Notes under the pieces: model-generated
What the model was told of the DNA's origin: nothing
Seen by the model: the letters and a program-made list of their open reading frames with translations, nothing else
Databases searched by the model: none
Program-made: the position numbers and the translations under genes
Shown here: positions 141 to 8,412 of the stretch, in pieces
How the letters are laid out: each line of letters starts with the position of its first letter
How positions within the stretch are numbered: position 1 is the stretch's first letter
DNA from: a virus
Length of the DNA: 8,437 nucleotides
Direction: 5' to 3' (one strand)
UHGV virus genome: UHGV-1436539

Positions 141-173
141 AGTGCGCATAATGTACGACTCGTTATGTTGAAA
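141..173 (+). other. Degenerate dif-like XerCD site at the left prophage junction, with expanded central region
   Basis: AGTGCGCATAA-TGTACGACTCG-TTATGTTGAAA. The XerC arm and the first 4 central nt match the canonical dif at 8385-8412 and the XerD arm matches 9/11, but the central region is 11 nt instead of 6. Confidence 0.7.
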
Positions 174-239: not shown

Positions 240-1502
240 TTATCCCTCTATTATATTTTCCCTTTCCAATACCTCACGAATTTGTTGGAATACAGCACTT
301 ATATTCCCTTTAGGGAATCTTATTTGCCCTAATCCATTTATGTTGGAGAACTCTTCACATCCGTCTTCAAGAAGAATGATTGCCCGTTCAAAGCCCAGCT
401 TACCTTGAAAAAGTCCTGCTTCATGTATGACATTCATTCTTGCTTGGACTTTTCCTTCTTGAGTTTCATCTTCGGCAGTCATCAAAATAAAGGCAAATGC
501 AGCCTGCTCTAACATTTGATTAAGCCTTGTTATGTTTGTCACCCCGGCAATTGATACTCTATTAAATTCATCATAGGGTTGATGCAATTTATCTTTTATG
601 AAATCTTTAAGTTCAAGCCAAAGCTTTGATTTCCCATGACCAATAAATATATTTATTCCCGCATCTTTTTCACGCATCATCTTCCCCTCTAAGTTATTGA
701 TATGCTTGTATAATTTATCAATAAGTTTTTGTAGTTCATTACAAGATGAGTATGCACCCATAACTTCTGCAACTCGAACCCTGAGATTAATGTGTGGTGG
801 TACTCGTATTCCTTCTTGTAATGCCATGTTATCAGAGCTGGTTACTTGTTTTGGAAGGAAAAGTGACAGAATTTGTTTTTCGGATAAGATTTTGCTGTTT
901 TCAATTTTAGATACTAAGTCTTCTAAAAATTTATCTTCAGGTGGAAGGCTTTTTTTCTGTGCATAATATAATGATAAAGCGTCACTTTTTAAATCGTTAA
1001 ATATTGAATTTACCTCATTTGCTTTTTTAATCTCTTCCAATAAATCTTCTTTAGTTAAGTCACACTTATTTAATATATAATCAGTTATTTGTTCTGGATC
1101 ATATTCTACCCAATCACCTATACTTTTCATTCCCTCGGTTAAATATCCACCCATATTTTGAAATGGGCTGTTAAATCCCCAATCCTTGTTAAACACCGCC
1201 CCAGTCGGAGGTTTTTGCAGGCCATTGTAATAGACCCTTGATTGATAGCCTATAAATGAACCTGACCAAGATTCATCTAGTTTACTGGTTAACGTTAAAA
1301 CTGATGAAAGTTTGCTCACATCATAGTTACTTAGCTTCTTTAACTTATCCATTAAATCAAGGTATTGATTTGCGCTCACTGTGTAATCTCCAAGCCTAAA
1401 ATTTGCACAATTTAAAACGTGCAGTGTAGGTAATACTGCACGTTTGTACCATTCGTGGTACTTAATCCTTTTGTTTGGAAGACATGAGATCTTCTGCTGC
1501 AT
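240..1502 (-). CDS. Two-domain protein: N-terminal domain of unknown function (~aa 1-280) plus C-terminal TIR-like (PF10137-type) putative effector domain; candidate defence or toxin effector
   Basis: Long minus-strand ORF (~420 aa from ATG at 1500-1502; the track's TTG at 1518-1520 would give 426 aa). The C-terminal region (plus-strand coordinates ~306-659) has the motif series IFIGHGKS ... AFAFILMTAEDE ... ARMNVIHEAGLFQGKLGFERAIILLEDG, which matches my recollection of the TIR-like family consensus (FIVHGHD ... FAVVLLTPDD ... RxNVIFELGYFxGKLGRxRV). No strong SD at any candidate start, so the start is uncertain. Confidence 0.6.
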   Translation of the reverse strand: MQQKISCLPNKRIKYHEWYKRAVLPTLHVLNCANFRLGDYTVSANQYLDLMDKLKKLSNYDVSKLSSVLTLTSKLDESWSGSFIGYQSRVYYNGLQKPPTGAVFNKDWGFNSPFQNMGGYLTEGMKSIGDWVEYDPEQITDYILNKCDLTKEDLLEEIKKANEVNSIFNDLKSDALSLYYAQKKSLPPEDKFLEDLVSKIENSKILSEKQILSLFLPKQVTSSDNMALQEGIRVPPHINLRVRVAEVMGAYSSCNELQKLIDKLYKHINNLEGKMMREKDAGINIFIGHGKSKLWLELKDFIKDKLHQPYDEFNRVSIAGVTNITRLNQMLEQAAFAFILMTAEDETQEGKVQARMNVIHEAGLFQGKLGFERAIILLEDGCEEFSNINGLGQIRFPKGNISAVFQQIREVLERENIIEG

Positions 1503-1644: not shown

Positions 1645-1813
1645 TTTTTACGCTCGTTCAATGCAATATTTGAAGTGAGTATACATGCTCATGAACTCAT
1701 ATCATCCAATCCTCTTGAACTCACTAGCTCACTGGTGTAATGTTAAAACACTAATGAACTACTGAACTCATGTGTTAGTAAGTCGTCATTTTTGCAATTT
1801 TGAGGATTTATTT
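1645..1813. promoter_or_regulatory. Divergent intergenic control region between the RHH gene and gII, with clustered direct repeats (candidate operators and promoters)
   Basis: TGAACTCA occurs at 1692-1699, 1716-1723 and 1763-1770, with a variant TGAACTAC at 1755-1762, and CTCACT occurs twice in tandem at 1720-1734. Candidate sigma70 elements: TTGAAC (1715-1720), 17 bp, TAATGT (1738-1743) towards gII; TATACT on the minus strand (1678-1683) towards the RHH gene. Promoter calls are weak. Confidence 0.4.
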
Positions 1814-2866
1814 GTGATCGATTGGCTTACCGGGATTTTCCCTTGCACACACAAACCGCTTCCGGCGGGGAGTGTTGTCAGCGTTGATGCTGACGGTGCA
1901 ATTGAGTGGGAAACCGTTAAGCGACTCACTGTTCGCGGTTCGCATGAAGCAACGATGAAAGTACGATCGATAGGATCTAATGGCGAAGGTAAAGCGACAC
2001 ATTTGTACATTGATGGTAATCCGTCCAAGTTTTTGCAGGGACATTCTGTTGTTGGGTCGGATGATATACAAGGGCTCATGTTGACGGCCTATGCCAGGAT
2101 TTTATCCTTATTGAATATTCCTCATGATTTAGCGTCTTATAAAGCCGTTATGGCCGGTCAGTATAAAATTTCTCGTGTTGACATTAATTACATGTATTCA
2201 TTATCTACGCTGGAAAATGTCAGATCATGGCTTTATGCCGCCGAATTTAAAGCTAAAACACGCCATGGTCGCGCATGTGGGAAAGGCGGTACAGTTTATT
2301 TAGGTAAAAACTCCCGTCGATGGAGTCTGAAATTTTATTCAAAATATGATGAACATGTTTCGGGTAAAAAAGGGCACCAGATAGCCGAAGAGTTTGTACG
2401 AGCCGGGTTACTGGACTGGACGAAAGATAAATTACGTATTGAATTAACATTAAGAACAACTGAGCTTATTGATTTAAATTTAACGCTTGGCGCTAACTGG
2501 AATATGAAAACACCACGTAAATTATTCTCTGAATATGTAGGGAGAATAGAAATGAATCAGAATGCTATTTTAAGTGATGAAAAAATAACGAAACTGCCAA
2601 GAAAAATACAGTCAACTTATTTACTTTGGAAACAAGGGGCTAACATGAAAGAAATGTTACCTCATAACACTTTTTATCGCCATAGAAGAGAGTTGCTTTC
2701 GTTCGGTATCGATATTAATTTCTATTGTGATTCACCAGACTCTAATAACGTTGTTCCGCTAATAAGAACGCTGGAAGCCAAGCCAGCGGAAATCCCCTTA
2801 TGGATTTATGAGAAAGGTTTTATTTTCGATTACAACCGTATTTCGCACGCCAGTAGCTGGCATTAA
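1814..2866 (+). CDS. gII: Replication initiation protein pII (rolling-circle nicking protein, Phage_CRI family)
   Basis: The segment VRGSHEATMKVRSIGSNG...HLYIDGNPSKFLQGHSVVGSDD resembles Ff pII/RstA-type initiators. GTG at 1814 is preceded by SD GAGGA (1802-1806) with a 7-nt spacer and gives an MID... N-terminus like Ff pII; the in-frame GTG at 1772 has no SD. Confidence 0.8.
   Translation: MIDWLTGIFPCTHKPLPAGSVVSVDADGAIEWETVKRLTVRGSHEATMKVRSIGSNGEGKATHLYIDGNPSKFLQGHSVVGSDDIQGLMLTAYARILSLLNIPHDLASYKAVMAGQYKISRVDINYMYSLSTLENVRSWLYAAEFKAKTRHGRACGKGGTVYLGKNSRRWSLKFYSKYDEHVSGKKGHQIAEEFVRAGLLDWTKDKLRIELTLRTTELIDLNLTLGANWNMKTPRKLFSEYVGRIEMNQNAILSDEKITKLPRKIQSTYLLWKQGANMKEMLPHNTFYRHRRELLSFGIDINFYCDSPDSNNVVPLIRTLEAKPAEIPLWIYEKGFIFDYNRISHASSWH
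2552..2866 (+). CDS. gX: pX-like protein from an internal in-frame start within gII (C-terminal 104 aa of pII)
   Basis: In-frame ATG at 2552 preceded by a strong SD GGGAGA (2540-2545) with a 6-nt spacer; this mirrors the Ff gene X arrangement. An alternative in-frame ATG at 2504 lacks an SD. Confidence 0.55.
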   Translation: MNQNAILSDEKITKLPRKIQSTYLLWKQGANMKEMLPHNTFYRHRRELLSFGIDINFYCDSPDSNNVVPLIRTLEAKPAEIPLWIYEKGFIFDYNRISHASSWH

Positions 2867-2877
2867 AGGAAAGTAAT

Positions 2878-3195
2878 ATGTCTAATTATGGTCTTTTCGT
2901 TAAGGGTAAAATGTTGGGAGCCCGCCAACGTAATAAAGTTAATGGTCAGGGCTATTATAATGAAATTGGTATTGGTCTTGAAATACCTGATGGTTTTGGT
3001 GGTACAAAGCAGGATCAAATTATTATTCGAGTTTCTCAAGCTCTCGTTAATGCAGGTCTAATGAACCAGGCGAATGCTTTCATTGGGAAATTAGTTCAAA
3101 TTCCTGTCTATGTCCGTGCATGGTCAATGGAGGGCAGGGAAGGTGTAACTTATAATGTTTCTTCCGATGGTGGCATCGCAGAGATCAAAGGTTAA
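2878..3195 (+). CDS. gV: Putative ssDNA-binding protein pV (assigned by position; sequence divergent)
   Basis: 105-aa ORF between gII and gVII with SD AAGGAAA upstream. Assignment rests on synteny with Ff phages; I do not see clear similarity to Ff gVp. Confidence 0.55.
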   Translation: MSNYGLFVKGKMLGARQRNKVNGQGYYNEIGIGLEIPDGFGGTKQDQIIIRVSQALVNAGLMNQANAFIGKLVQIPVYVRAWSMEGREGVTYNVSSDGGIAEIKG

Positions 3196-4908: not shown

Positions 4909-5249
4909 TGCCTTTATTGTTAGGTATTCCTGCATTGTTGCGTTTTCTCATTGGTCTTGTCCCTTTGTTTATTGGCTATGTGGCGAGTTTTTTAGCTCGA
5001 CTTGCTACCAAAACAGGATTAATCGCCTTTGCATTGGTCGCACTAATTACAACAACTGTTACGCTTTTAATGCAGTACCTTGCTGAGGTCATGTATAACG
5101 GTTTACCTGCTGATTTCTCTCATTTAATGGCATCTGTATTACCTGACCATTTTCAGGCGTGTGTTAACGTTATTATGGTTACTCGTATCAGTGTTTTTGT
5201 TTTCGATTTAAAACAAAAATTCCTTGATTATGCAAACAGGGTGATTTAA
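4908..5249 (+). CDS. gVI: Minor coat protein pVI (113 aa)
   Basis: [13 protein letters not shown]... closely resembles Ff pVI (MPVLLGIPLLLRF...), and ...FDLKQKF resembles Ff FDVKQK. The start overlaps the gIII stop; SD AAGGGGG is present. Confidence 0.9.
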   Translation: MPLLLGIPALLRFLIGLVPLFIGYVASFLARLATKTGLIAFALVALITTTVTLLMQYLAEVMYNGLPADFSHLMASVLPDHFQACVNVIMVTRISVFVFDLKQKFLDYANRVI

Positions 5250-6344
5250 ATGGCGGTTCATGTAGTAACAGGCAAATTAGGCTCAGGTAAGACACTTGTT
5301 AGTGTTTCCCGAATACAGGAAAGACTTGCTAAGGGTTGTCCTGTTGCCACTAATCTTGATCTTAAATTGCATAATATGCCTATGGTTGGTCGTTATGCGA
5401 AAAAAACGCGCGTTATTCGCGTTCCTGATAAGCCTTCATTAAATGATTTACTGGCTATTGGTATTGGGAATACATCTTACGATGAATCCCGCAATGGCCT
5501 TCTGGTACTTGATGAATGTGGTACTTGGTTTAATTCCCGTTCATGGGGTGATAAAGACAGACAACCTGTTATTGACTGGTTTTTACATGCCCGTAAATTA
5601 GGCTGGGATATTATATTTTTGATTCAGGATATTTCGATAATGGATAAGCAAGCTCGTCTGGCGCTTGCTGAACATGTTGTTTATTGCCGACGTTCAGATA
5701 AATTAAATATCCCTTTTATTGGCTCCATTATGAATTTGGTTTCAGGGGCGCGATTTTCTTTACCAAAAGTACACTTTGGTATTGTTAAGTATGGTGACAA
5801 TATTAACTCAATCACTGTTGATAAGTGGATATATACCGGAAAATCTCTTTATTCTGCTTACAATACCAAACAAGCGTTCACAGATAATTATCCTCATGGC
5901 GCATTTTCGCTTTTGCCTCCATTTATCACACACGGTCAATTTTCTGTTCATAGGGGATTTAATTATTATATGCGCCTCACTAAAATTTATTTCCGTAAAT
6001 CGAATCGTCTTATATTAATGCTTTCTTTTCTGGTGCTGGGACTTGGTCTTGGTTTCTGGTTCCAGTCTGGAAAGAATGTTGATGAAATCACAGCTATTAA
6101 ATCTTCTTATGCTGAACAGGCGAGGGCGGTAACGCCTGATTCGTCCAGTGATTTACCCCGACTTTCTATTAATTCTTTTTCACAACTTGGTTTTGACGTT
6201 TCTGTTACATTTATTGATGCTAAAGGTATGAAATATCAGTATTTTGATTTAATTAAAGATGGTTATTCCGTTGATATTAAAGATGCCTGTCGTATTTTTA
6301 TCAGAAAAGGCCGTTATTTACAGACCGTTACCTGTCAGGAGTAA
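5250..6344 (+). CDS. gI: Assembly ATPase pI (Zot-like, 364 aa)
   Basis: Strong similarity to Ff pI throughout, including MAVxxVTGKLGSGKTLVSV (Walker A), LLVLDECGTWFNxRSW (Walker B region) and DWFLHARKLGWDIIFL. Confidence 0.95.
   Translation: MAVHVVTGKLGSGKTLVSVSRIQERLAKGCPVATNLDLKLHNMPMVGRYAKKTRVIRVPDKPSLNDLLAIGIGNTSYDESRNGLLVLDECGTWFNSRSWGDKDRQPVIDWFLHARKLGWDIIFLIQDISIMDKQARLALAEHVVYCRRSDKLNIPFIGSIMNLVSGARFSLPKVHFGIVKYGDNINSITVDKWIYTGKSLYSAYNTKQAFTDNYPHGAFSLLPPFITHGQFSVHRGFNYYMRLTKIYFRKSNRLILMLSFLVLGLGLGFWFQSGKNVDEITAIKSSYAEQARAVTPDSSSDLPRLSINSFSQLGFDVSVTFIDAKGMKYQYFDLIKDGYSVDIKDACRIFIRKGRYLQTVTCQE
5970..6344 (+). CDS. gXI: pXI-like protein from an internal in-frame start of gI (124 aa, membrane-anchored C-terminal part)
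   Basis: In-frame ATG at codon 241 of gI (MRLTKIYFRK...), the same codon position and local motif as the Ff gene XI start (MKLTKIYLKK). Confidence 0.55.
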   Translation: MRLTKIYFRKSNRLILMLSFLVLGLGLGFWFQSGKNVDEITAIKSSYAEQARAVTPDSSSDLPRLSINSFSQLGFDVSVTFIDAKGMKYQYFDLIKDGYSVDIKDACRIFIRKGRYLQTVTCQE

Positions 6345-6351
6345 TATTATT

Positions 6352-7617
6352 ATGCGCTCTTTTATTATTGCTTTTTTATTTACCTGTTCATTCTGCGTTT
6401 CTGCTGAAACTGTTAATTTAAATAATTCGTCTGTTCGCTCATTTGTTCAGTGGTATTCGTCAAAAACTGGCAAGCCTGTTATTGTTAATCCTGATGTTAA
6501 AGGGAACGTAACCGTATTTAATGCTGATGTTAACCCAACAAATATTGATGATTTCTTTAAGTCTGTTCTCAATGCTAACGGGTTTGTTATGCTTTCCGGT
6601 AATCCTGCGGTTGTCTCTTTGCCGTCTAAATTACCGTCACAAATGGCTTCTGACTCCGGCGACTCTGATAATCAGTCTTATGATTCTTTTCCTTCTGAGC
6701 CATCTTACCAGCCAGTACCTGTGGCGCTTACGGTCAGAAATTTTAAGCTGACAAAAGTTAGATCGTCCGATGTTCAGCAACTGATTAAAATTTATCTTGA
6801 TTCTAATGGTGGTGGTAATGTCGTGGATTATCCAGGCAATAACTCGCTGATTGTTTCTGCGCCTGACGAGCTGCTGCCGGTTCTGTCCGATTTTATCAAT
6901 TCTGTGGATGTTGCCCGCGATCAGGTTCTCATTCAGTCGCTGATGTTTGAAACCAGCTTGTCTGATGGCGTTGATTTATCGTTTGCGGCAGGTTCTGCAT
7001 CCGGTCATAAGGTTGCGGGGGGCTTTAATACTTCTGCACTGGGTAGCGCTCTTTCTACGGCGGGCGGTTCTTTTGGTATTTTTGATGGTAACGTGTTGGC
7101 GCTGTCTCTGCGTGCTGTCCAGAGTAATTCACGCTCTAAGGTGATTTCAACGCCGCGTATTCTTACTCAGTCTGGTCAGACTGGTTACATTTCCGTAGGT
7201 AAGAATGTGCCGTTTATCACCGGAAAGGTAACGGGCGAATCTGCCGGCGTAAATAATCCGTTTCAGACTATCGAGCGTCATGATGTTGGCGTTTCTCTCA
7301 AGGTAACGCCTGTTGTCATGGGTAACGGGCAACTAGTTCTGACTATCGACACTCGCGCTGATTCAATCAGCAATGATGATCAGGCATCCGATATTATTAC
7401 TAATCAGCGCCAGATTCAGACGACAGTCCAGATTAAGGATGGTCAGACGTTGTTATTGGGGGGGCTTATCGATTCATCGTTCAGCAATGCCGAGCGTTCA
7501 GTTCCAGTTATAAGTAAAATTCCTCTTATAGGCTGGATGTTCAGTAGCAAGGCAGACAGCAATGAACAGCGTATTATGTATATTTTGCTTACAGCACATA
7601 TCATTCGTCCACTTTGA
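6352..7617 (+). CDS. gIV: Outer-membrane secretin pIV (421 aa) for phage extrusion
   Basis: Signal peptide MRSFIIAFLFTCSFCVSA. Extensive similarity to Ff pIV, including the C-terminal secretin block VPFITGKVTGESAGVNNPFQTIER, QTLLLGGL and SKIPLIG. ATG at 6352 with SD AGGAG; the upstream track start overlaps gI and is rejected. Confidence 0.95.
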   Translation: MRSFIIAFLFTCSFCVSAETVNLNNSSVRSFVQWYSSKTGKPVIVNPDVKGNVTVFNADVNPTNIDDFFKSVLNANGFVMLSGNPAVVSLPSKLPSQMASDSGDSDNQSYDSFPSEPSYQPVPVALTVRNFKLTKVRSSDVQQLIKIYLDSNGGGNVVDYPGNNSLIVSAPDELLPVLSDFINSVDVARDQVLIQSLMFETSLSDGVDLSFAAGSASGHKVAGGFNTSALGSALSTAGGSFGIFDGNVLALSLRAVQSNSRSKVISTPRILTQSGQTGYISVGKNVPFITGKVTGESAGVNNPFQTIERHDVGVSLKVTPVVMGNGQLVLTIDTRADSISNDDQASDIITNQRQIQTTVQIKDGQTLLLGGLIDSSFSNAERSVPVISKIPLIGWMFSSKADSNEQRIMYILLTAHIIRPL

Positions 7618-7658
7618 TGGATAGCGGGTAGGTGCGTGAGCCCTGCTCGCTATCCATC
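7616..7658 (+). other. Stable hairpin immediately after gIV: candidate packaging signal or gIV transcript terminator structure
   Basis: Perfect 11-bp inverted repeat GATGGATAGCG (7616-7626) / CGCTATCCATC (7648-7658) with a ~21-nt loop and no following T tract. In Ff phages the packaging-signal hairpin lies directly after gene IV. Confidence 0.4.
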
Positions 7659-8112: not shown

Positions 8113-8346
8113 ATGCAATTTTTCACATCCAGCGATACTGTAATGTTATGTGCGAAGACCTGCGATCGCTGTGGTCGCCATGCGAAGACGGTGGTAGATG
8201 ACATTGAGTTCAATGAGTTTCTGTCTGTTAATCACTTAGCTGGATACGGTTCAATTTTTGGTGACAGTAATCGCTTAAAACTAGATTTATGCCAACATTG
8301 CCTGAAAGACGTCCTGGGCCAGTGGATTACGGTCTGTGACCAATGA
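8113..8346 (+). CDS. Hypothetical small Cys-rich protein (77 aa), putative zinc ribbon
   Basis: Strong SD GAGGAG (8102-8107) 5 nt before the ATG. Cys pattern C-x3-C-x2-C ... C-x2-C (CAKTCDRCG ... CQHC). Function unknown. Confidence 0.55.
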   Translation: MQFFTSSDTVMLCAKTCDRCGRHAKTVVDDIEFNEFLSVNHLAGYGSIFGDSNRLKLDLCQHCLKDVLGQWITVCDQ

Positions 8347-8384: not shown

Positions 8385-8412
8385 GGTGCGCATAATGTAT
8401 ATTATGTTAAAT
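8385..8412 (+). other. dif: Canonical dif site (XerCD chromosome-dimer resolution site) forming the right prophage junction
   Basis: Exact match to the E. coli dif 28-mer GGTGCGCATAA-TGTATA-TTATGTTAAAT as I know it. Confidence 0.85.

Follow-up and report, generated by a model that had tools for sequence, protein, structure and literature searches.

Phased 8-bp boxes upstream of gII in an inovirus prophage are probable operators of a small, predicted ribbon-helix-helix repressor

What purpose is served by a cluster of short direct repeats lying between two divergently oriented genes of the virus genome UHGV-1436539? The stretch of DNA analysed here, which we call the window, is 8,437 nucleotides long and is a filamentous prophage (a UPΦ-type, I2-2-like inovirus) integrated at dif. 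The repeats lie in a 169-bp gap between the ATG (1644) of a minus-strand open reading frame (ORF) for a protein of 60 amino acids (aa) and the GTG (1814) of gII, which encodes the replication initiator. An earlier reading of the bare sequence, hereafter the original prediction, proposed that the repeats are operators through which the small protein, presumed to be of the ribbon-helix-helix (RHH) type, could control gII and its own promoter in a lysogeny-switch-like arrangement, and named the replication origin as an alternative. Comparison with related loci supports the first proposal, on the basis of the co-occurrence of repeats and protein across two gII families, the wholesale replacement of the repeats where a different gene lies upstream, and homology of the protein to RstR. 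We therefore consider it likely that the repeats are operators of a small RHH repressor that silences gII of the integrated phage, and that the gap is an immunity region resembling ig-2 of CTXΦ.

The repeats named in the original prediction are all present in the gap: three exact plus-strand copies of TGAACTCA (1692-1699, 1716-1723 and 1763-1770), the variant TGAACTAC (1755-1762), and CTCACT at 1720-1725 and 1728-1733. Elsewhere in the 8437 bp there is one copy of TGAACTCA only, on the minus strand within an ORF (8205-8212), and the four copies compare with 0.33 expected from shuffled sequences, with none of 200 shuffles reaching four. The repeats are thus real, but TGAACTCA and CTCACT are not separate motifs: comparison with relatives reveals a single 8-bp box that contains both. 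On sequence grounds, the repeat unit is YTCATGAR, in which two further bases, most often AC or GT, accompany the palindrome TCATGA; the units are arranged head to tail in phased arrays, with TGAACTCA corresponding to the junction of two adjacent boxes. The copy at 8205 was set aside as a chance occurrence; it lies in the h2 ORF, where EFNEF codons are repeated, and does not keep the 8-bp phase.

Boxes are grouped into arrays O1, O2 and O3 (Table 1), of which O1 and O2 are in mutual 8-bp phase, 24 bp apart. This periodicity is apparent when no motif model is used: the lag-8 autocorrelation of the gap is 0.44 (z = 4.9 versus shuffles), the highest value among lags 2-16, and the 100-nt segments starting at 1701 and 1711 give the window-wide maximum. 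The corresponding z values in relatives are 6.2 (locus L015), 3.5 (L019) and 2.7 (L016). Three in-phase pairs of boxes, scored as YTCATGAR with at least 6 of 8 positions matching, were reached by 2 of 5000 dinucleotide shuffles; because this pattern was picked after inspection of the sequence, conservation across loci constitutes stronger evidence than the shuffle test.

Conservation is indeed what an alignment of 10 diverged gaps reveals. Invariant columns fall in TCATGA..TCA of O1, in TTGAACTCA of O2 and in the boxes of O3, and the spacers drift. An aligned O3 array is found in relatives, and in L016 it terminates with the palindrome AACTCATGAGTT, which in L015 occupies the middle (O2) array instead. 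The inverted ACTCACT copy listed in Table 1 is not kept in more distant relatives. Flanking the gap is a 23-nt direct repeat (1625-1647 and 1779-1801; 78% identical, with TAAGTCGT and TTTGC.ATTTT in common), whose first copy overlaps the start codon of the 60-aa gene and whose second lies within the U-rich gII leader. Both copies are also present in Brenneria, and the second is missing in relatives with the other gII family described below. We did not retain this repeat as a further element, given that its first copy codes for the N terminus of the small protein and its second is absent with the other gII family; it is possibly due to chance.

The boxes overlap both core promoters that can be placed in the gap. 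That of the 60-aa gene, P_R, is the only sigma-70-like site returned by a promoter scan, and a TAnnnT hexamer (TATACT, TAGAAT, TAAGAT or TATAAT) occupies the aligned −10 position in all relatives. For the gII promoter, P_gII, the −35 hexamer TTGAAC is invariant, and in every relative a TAnnnT preceded by TG follows 17-18 bp downstream (TAAGGT, TATCTT, TAGTAT, TATTAT or TATATT). The positions of both promoters are inferred from sequence. The GTG assigned as the gII start is preceded by GAGGA at 1802-1806, and translation from it aligns with I2-2 gpII from residue 1 (MIDW...), to which the window protein is 57% identical over its full length; it is 86% identical to gII of YpfΦ.

Table 1. Coordinates of the probable operator arrays, putative promoters, genes and attachment sites in the window
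Feature	Coordinates	Strand	Description
O1 array	1688-1703		Two tandem boxes, CTCATGAA and CTCATATC; about −17 to −32 of P_R
O2 array	1712-1735		Three tandem boxes, CTCTTGAA, CTCACTAG and CTCACTGG; about −38 to −15 of inferred P_gII
O3 array	1751-1782		CTAATGAA, CTACTGAA and CTCATGTG, plus a weak fourth, TTAGTAAG; about +2 to +33 of inferred gII transcript
Inverted ACTCACT copy	1674-1680	−	Overlaps P_R −10; possible extra half-site; weak
P_R −10, TATACT	1678-1683	−	Putative; predicted start about 1671
P_gII	1715-1743	+	Putative; −35 TTGAAC (1715-1720), 17-bp spacer, −10 TAATGT (1738-1743); predicted start about 1750
60-aa repressor gene	1462-1644	−	Predicted ribbon-helix-helix, RstR-like; phrog_2503
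gII	1814-2866	+	Replication initiator, proposed regulated gene; Phage_CRI and G2P_X_C (Pfam E = 8.6e-71)
Hairpin pair	1415-1445 and 1446-1461		Context, outside the operator; candidate (+)-strand origin and/or repressor-gene terminator
Cargo gene	240-1379	−	379 aa; C-terminal CAP12/Pycsar-type TIR domain (Pfam PF10137, E = 5e-23)
attL, dif-like	about 141-173		Longer, divergent central region: AGTGCGCATAA TGTACGACTCG TTATGTTGAAA
attR	8385-8412		Perfect 28-bp E. coli-type dif, GGTGCGCATAATGTATATTATGTTAAAT

Whether the boxes accompany the 60-aa protein or the initiator can be judged from loci gathered in two ways, through the gII protein and through the 60-aa protein. The gII proteins are of two types, between which BLASTP detects no similarity: type A comprises those of the window, I2-2 (56-57% identical), YpfΦ and Klebsiella spallanzanii (86%), and type B those of L015, L016, L019, L021 and L024 (65-85% identical among themselves). 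Box arrays are found at all loci that encode a relative of the 60-aa protein (60-98% identity), at a constant distance from its start codon and with either gII type; the box-bearing loci include L015, L016-18, L019, L021 and L024, whose gII lacks BLASTP similarity to that of the window. The hosts range from Providencia to Klebsiella, and the boxes occur solely beside this protein. At the YpfΦ/CUS-like (L008/L009), K. spallanzanii (L010) and L011 loci, where gII is 86% identical to that of the window and a different gene lies divergently upstream, the gaps are unrelated, carry repeats of their own, contain no boxes and have lag-8 z values of about 0. The divergent gene of YpfΦ is YPO2273, an RstR homologue (PMC4266046). 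Because the boxes track the 60-aa protein across both gII types, the repeats belong to that protein and not to the replication protein.

These same loci demonstrate that regulator and gap are swapped as one cassette, as is the RstR/ig-2 module. At least three different cassettes (those of the window, YpfΦ and K. spallanzanii) are found beside gII proteins that are mutually 86-99% identical, and one cassette is found beside two gII families without mutual BLASTP similarity. In YpfΦ of Yersinia pestis (L008/L009) and K. spallanzanii L010, the gII proteins are 99% identical and the upstream genes and gaps entirely different, and by its sequences this pair is a clean natural case of immunity-cassette exchange. 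Two other sources were of little use for this comparison. All 48 copies of the gap in E. coli are at least 98% identical, so E. coli genomes are uninformative for covariation. A scan of IMG/VR for O1-N13-18-O2 returned 33 matches, of which 12 were gap-like, each with a 60-aa-protein homologue encoded about 45 nt away; the other 21 belong to a few unrelated sequence families that match by chance, and the scan therefore adds little.

The 60-aa protein itself is predicted to adopt the RHH fold. An AlphaFold2 monomer model built with 14 homologues (predicted local distance difference test score, 79) has an extended segment (residues 1-10), a helix (11-28), a short loop and a second helix (34-59), which corresponds to the strand-helix-helix arrangement of approximately 45 residues that characterizes RHH proteins. 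PADLOC returned nothing for the protein, and its PHROGs assignment, phrog_2503, is a family of unknown function only. The family is a small one, making up 64 clusters (50% identity) in a set of 1.84 billion representative proteins. In its alignment the helices are conserved and alternate residues of the N-terminal strand differ between subfamilies; this is the pattern expected if the strand reads DNA. The protein has no sensor domain.

Searches of phage records connect this protein to RstR, the repressor of CTXΦ. A blastn search with the gap region yielded no match; tblastn with the protein did, matching rstR of GQ466611, KR063268 and GU942563 (40.7% identity over 57 aa, E 4e-6 to 5e-6), which in GQ466611 is annotated as 'environmental RstR; cryptic phage CTXphi transcriptional repressor' and in KR063268 belongs to pre-CTX. 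It is also 42% identical (tblastn) to the 'RstR-like' genes of Vibrio anguillarum VAI1/2. Both the rstR and the 'RstR-like' homologues are divergent from rstA. Further tblastn homologues were found in V. cyclitrophicus, Aeromonas and oral inoviruses, and the gene is divergent from a replication gene in pre-CTX, VAI2, Dulem 53, D_HF5_61 and the V. cyclitrophicus phages. The homology reaches the small 'environmental' RstR class and not RstR-ET, RstR-classical or RstR-Calcutta, which are helix-turn-helix proteins of about 110 aa with long operators. If the modelled fold is correct, the name 'RstR' in CTXΦ-type phages would cover at least two unrelated folds. In lux assays, each of eight Vibrio rstR alleles repressed its own ig-2 promoter more than those of other alleles (PMC11509585). 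Allele 6 is one of these eight, and its forward cloning primer agrees at 29 of 31 nt with the beginning of a gene of the family; allele 6 probably belongs to the family for this reason.

Homologues were also detected in two coliphages. If1 (NC_001954) carries an intact, unannotated homologue of 63 aa (5137-5301, minus strand; 56% identical) in its 'major intergenic region', with GC-rich hairpins and ORF348 upstream. I2-2 (NC_001332) carries a frameshifted homologue (2715-2918, minus strand; 43% identical after correction) in an annotated 'intergenic region'. The frameshift is either a sequencing error in a 1992 record or a real inactivation in a phage that does not integrate; the protein library contains an intact counterpart of I2-2 type (P0117).

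If the 60-aa family and the boxes form a repressor-operator pair, then the DNA-contacting strand and the box would be expected to change together, and this co-variation is what we observe in a qualitative comparison that uses, as the box of each gap, its over-represented word. Strand KR[TA]TYNVTE is paired with TCATGA/TGAACTCA in the window, L015 and L019; KRYVYNVRE with TTCATT in Dulem 53; GDTTVRINE with GCATGC in pre-CTX and VAI2; KDTSVRVNE with GTATGT in D_HF5_61; QKYTSLRVKE with CATGTA in the V. cyclitrophicus phage; and VRTTASITTE with TATACA in I2-2. Boxes of the I2-2-type cassette read TATACACG, and the TATACA of I2-2 is part of ATACGTGTATACACGTAT, a perfect palindrome of 18 bp that closely precedes gII. 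Most gaps contain at least three copies of their word, and the first two are 23 bp apart in pre-CTX, VAI2 and D_HF5_61, versus 24 bp in the window.

Taken as operators, the boxes suggest a mechanism. The gap would hold two back-to-back promoters, P_gII driving gII and, if CTXΦ is a guide, the entire operon that follows it, and P_R driving the 60-aa gene. Each RHH dimer would read one TCATGA palindrome through its N-terminal β-ribbon (approximately residues 3-10, KRTTYNVT), and dimers on neighboring boxes 8 bp apart would bind cooperatively, in the way that MetJ occupies tandem met-boxes. Occupancy of O2 and O3 would block RNA polymerase at P_gII, keeping replication low and conferring on the lysogen immunity to phages that share its module, and occupancy of O1 would result in negative autoregulation.

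Several points count against this account. DNA binding, the assignment of one dimer to each box, cooperativity and the direction of regulation are all inferred. The RHH assignment comes from a monomer model of medium confidence; no Pfam match was obtained for the window protein, 13 close homologues or five distant ones, a search of PDB sequences gave no match for the protein, and Foldseek found none for its model. The tie to an rstR allele that has been assayed runs through the sequence of a primer. P_gII as placed here has a weak −10 (TAATGT) that falls below the threshold of the promoter scan, and TTGAACTCA could owe part of its invariance to a function as −35 element and not as operator. 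Finally, the loci of the distant Vibrio homologues show no significant 8-bp periodicity (z about 0.5-0.6 for pre-CTX and VAI2), and consequently the MetJ-like tandem mode may be specific to a subfamily.

Among other explanations for the repeats, the one put forward alongside the operator proposal, that they are iterons of a (+)-strand origin bound by gpII, fares poorly. The Ff phages provide its rationale: their origin is situated in the intergenic region upstream of gII, gpII binds short repeats beside the nick site, and words from this binding region (TGGACTC, TGGAAC and ACTCAAC) loosely resemble TGAACTCA, a likeness that does not amount to a test. The boxes, however, are found beside a gII family without BLASTP similarity to that of the window and are missing beside gII proteins 86% identical to it, so that they are not co-inherited with the initiator, and no stable nick-site hairpin adjoins them, as the gap folds as a single strand no better than shuffled sequence (z = +0.36). 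A strong hairpin pair, formed by a 13-bp stem with a 5-nt loop and a 6-bp stem with a TTCG loop, occurs instead at 1415-1461, outside the gap, where single-stranded DNA spanning 1395-1470 is calculated to fold with −18.1 kcal/mol (z = −6.2), and this pair tracks the gII type. Ten of 11 type-A loci retain it at 84-100% nucleotide identity, whatever the divergent upstream gene, including those of I2-2 (gII protein 57% identical), YpfΦ, E. coli, Brenneria and L011. No BLAST match to it was found in Rheinheimera (L013; type A, gII 43% identical) or at the type-B loci, and in K. spallanzanii L010 the match is only partial, 25 nt located downstream of gII. The second stem carries a compensatory change in YpfΦ, with GTCTCA...TGAGAC in place of GTACCA...TGGTAC. 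Being downstream of the repressor gene, the pair corresponds in position to ig-1, where the origin of CTXΦ reportedly lies. Positions 1415-1461 are thus a better origin candidate than the gap repeats, and the hairpins may also terminate the repressor transcript. On account of the association test, the folding of the gap and this better candidate elsewhere, we regard the origin explanation of the repeats as very unlikely.

Other alternatives retain the operator-like character of the boxes and assign them a different role or a different protein. The 60-aa protein might bind them chiefly to activate transcription or to switch it in both directions, stimulating, for example, P_gII or the cargo genes, a proposal that we judge unlikely even though the TTGAAC of O2 is itself the −35 element, the −10 is weak enough that the promoter might need help, and some RHH proteins, such as AlgZ/AmrZ, do activate transcription. 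UPΦ lysogens, moreover, release phage (PMC7307601), so gII is not fully off. The placement of the arrays is nonetheless typical of repression, with O2 filling the −35 and spacer and O3 just past the start, and the homologues are annotated as RstR, of which the tested rstR alleles repress ig-2 promoters (PMC11509585). There is even less reason to view the protein as an antitoxin or regulator of the adjoining cargo (TIR here, a Doc-family toxin elsewhere) and the repeats as an autoregulatory operator of toxin-antitoxin type, because the protein remains 97-100% identical as the cargo changes from TIR to Doc, STM4504, PD-(D/E)XK or zinc-binding proteins, has no C-terminal toxin-binding extension, is encoded in the equivalent place without such cargo in I2-2, CTXΦ-type phages and oral inoviruses, and is separated from the cargo gene by the two hairpins. 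Equally improbable is an origin of the boxes as sites for a host regulator, or as reiterated −35-like elements, that have no connection with the 60-aa protein. TGAAC is similar to the −35 consensus, and in YpfΦ the host protein RovA binds the putative promoter region of the replication gene YPO2274 (PMC4266046). Against this possibility, simple patterns for LexA, CRP, IHF and Fur were not found in the gap, the boxes recur across hosts only together with this protein, and their sequence shifts with its β-strand.

The preferred reading of the boxes as operators of a gII repressor places the locus within a known kind of system: it would be an immunity cassette of the RstR/ig-2 type in an integrating inovirus, with a predicted RHH protein and a MetJ-type operator layout. 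As in ig-2 of CTXΦ and pre-CTXΦ, a small repressor gene and rstA/gII diverge from a gap that contains promoters and repeated sites, an arrangement common to all of the relatives; the module, presumably allele-specific, passes between phages that are alike in other respects, the pattern of heteroimmunity; and the candidate origin lies beyond the repressor gene, as ig-1 does in CTXΦ. The differences are that the protein is 60 aa long and predicted to be RHH, unlike the well-studied RstR alleles, that the host group is Enterobacteriaceae and the structural genes resemble those of I2-2 and IKe, that the box is TCATGA rather than GCATGC and is organized into 8-bp tandem arrays, and that no LexA-like site was seen in the gap. 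MetJ of E. coli is an RHH protein whose 8-bp palindromic met-box is repeated head to tail two to four times in exact 8-bp phase. The palindromic boxes of the window show the same exact tandem phase, and by analogy the layout suggests one dimer per box with contacts between neighboring dimers; homology of the 60-aa protein to MetJ was not found, the resemblance being one of layout only. The omega repressor of pSM19035 and other inc18 plasmids differs in having a 7-bp repeat (heptad arrays) rather than 8 bp, in regulating plasmid copy number and partition rather than phage immunity, and in lacking sequence similarity to the 60-aa protein.

As far as we could find, what is new is the recognition, in UPΦ-type prophages, of the probable repressor and its operators, with their architecture of phased 8-bp boxes; the placing of the small 'environmental' RstR class, as RHH-like proteins, in a single family along with proteins of enterobacterial, Aeromonas and oral inoviruses; and the relics of the 60-aa gene in I2-2 and If1. 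No paper connecting rstR with ribbon-helix-helix was found in the searchable literature. A repressor with its operators would provide a handle on prophage silencing, heteroimmunity and a possible coupling of cargo to the state of the phage, and the series of paired β-strands and boxes offers a simple, testable system of protein-DNA recognition. We can also entertain, much more tentatively and with doubt outweighing confidence, that the family represents an unnamed class of compact RHH immunity repressors that form a MetJ-style polymer on some 9-10 boxes, move between dissimilar replication modules and survive in If1 and I2-2. A polymer on 8-bp-phased boxes would be one continuous nucleoprotein coat over both promoters, and if this proposal is true, the cassette that is intact in If1 and frameshifted in I2-2 would mean that these 'non-temperate' coliphages arose from temperate, immunity-bearing ancestors.

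On the other side of the hairpins from the repressor gene lies the cargo gene, whose product, a TIR effector of the defence type, is classified by PADLOC as PDC-S35 and PycTIR-like; its N-terminal part gave no match. Because related prophages hold other genes between attL and the hairpins, encoding a Doc-family toxin, STM4504/CBY_0614, a PD-(D/E)XK nuclease or zinc-binding proteins, this slot is a variable cargo site, and it possibly serves defence genes. Positions 145-1471 of the window recur with 98% identity at 28800-30128 of pKGB1a, a conjugative IncF plasmid of Klebsiella variicola (NZ_CP071736). The shared segment consists of attL, the TIR gene and the hairpins and stops within the 3′ end of the repressor gene, and the rest of the window has no match on pKGB1a. 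The segment may have been left behind by a prophage, or it may indicate that the cargo cassette is mobile by itself.

The remainder of the window is organized as a prophage of the UPΦ group, which was described by Shapiro and Putonti in 2020 (PMC7307601). Like UPΦ901 and other UPΦ prophages, it has I2-2/IKe-like structural genes, dif integration, h1/h2 ORFs, reverse-strand accessory ORFs beside dif, and gII/gV in common with YpfΦ. In that paper, the text of which contains neither 'repressor' nor 'origin of replication', the 60-aa gene is one of the unnamed reverse-strand ORFs. Genes on the plus strand run in the order gII, gV, gVIII, gIII, gVI, gI (Zot-like) and gIV (secretin), with structural genes similar to those of I2-2, IKe and PEar phages, and downstream of gIV are a packaging-signal hairpin and two small ORFs. 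This hairpin (7612-7655), just 3′ of gIV, is approximately 80% identical over 44 nt to the annotated morphogenetic (packaging) signal of I2-2. Both ends of the window are covered by an empty-site match to a Klebsiella pneumoniae record.

The phage is shared at about 96.5% identity with 47 complete E. coli genomes and a 7.9-kb circular Salmonella replicon, with the exception of the segment to the right of attL, where the cargo differs between strains. A UPΦ-type prophage is held by the dif of approximately 1% of complete E. coli genomes (48 of 5426), and by Klebsiella and Salmonella as well. Contigs L006 and L011, which carry this enterobacterial phage, are filed under 'Candidatus Nanosynbacter' and 'Aerococcus' metagenome-assembled genomes, which is almost certainly a binning artefact.

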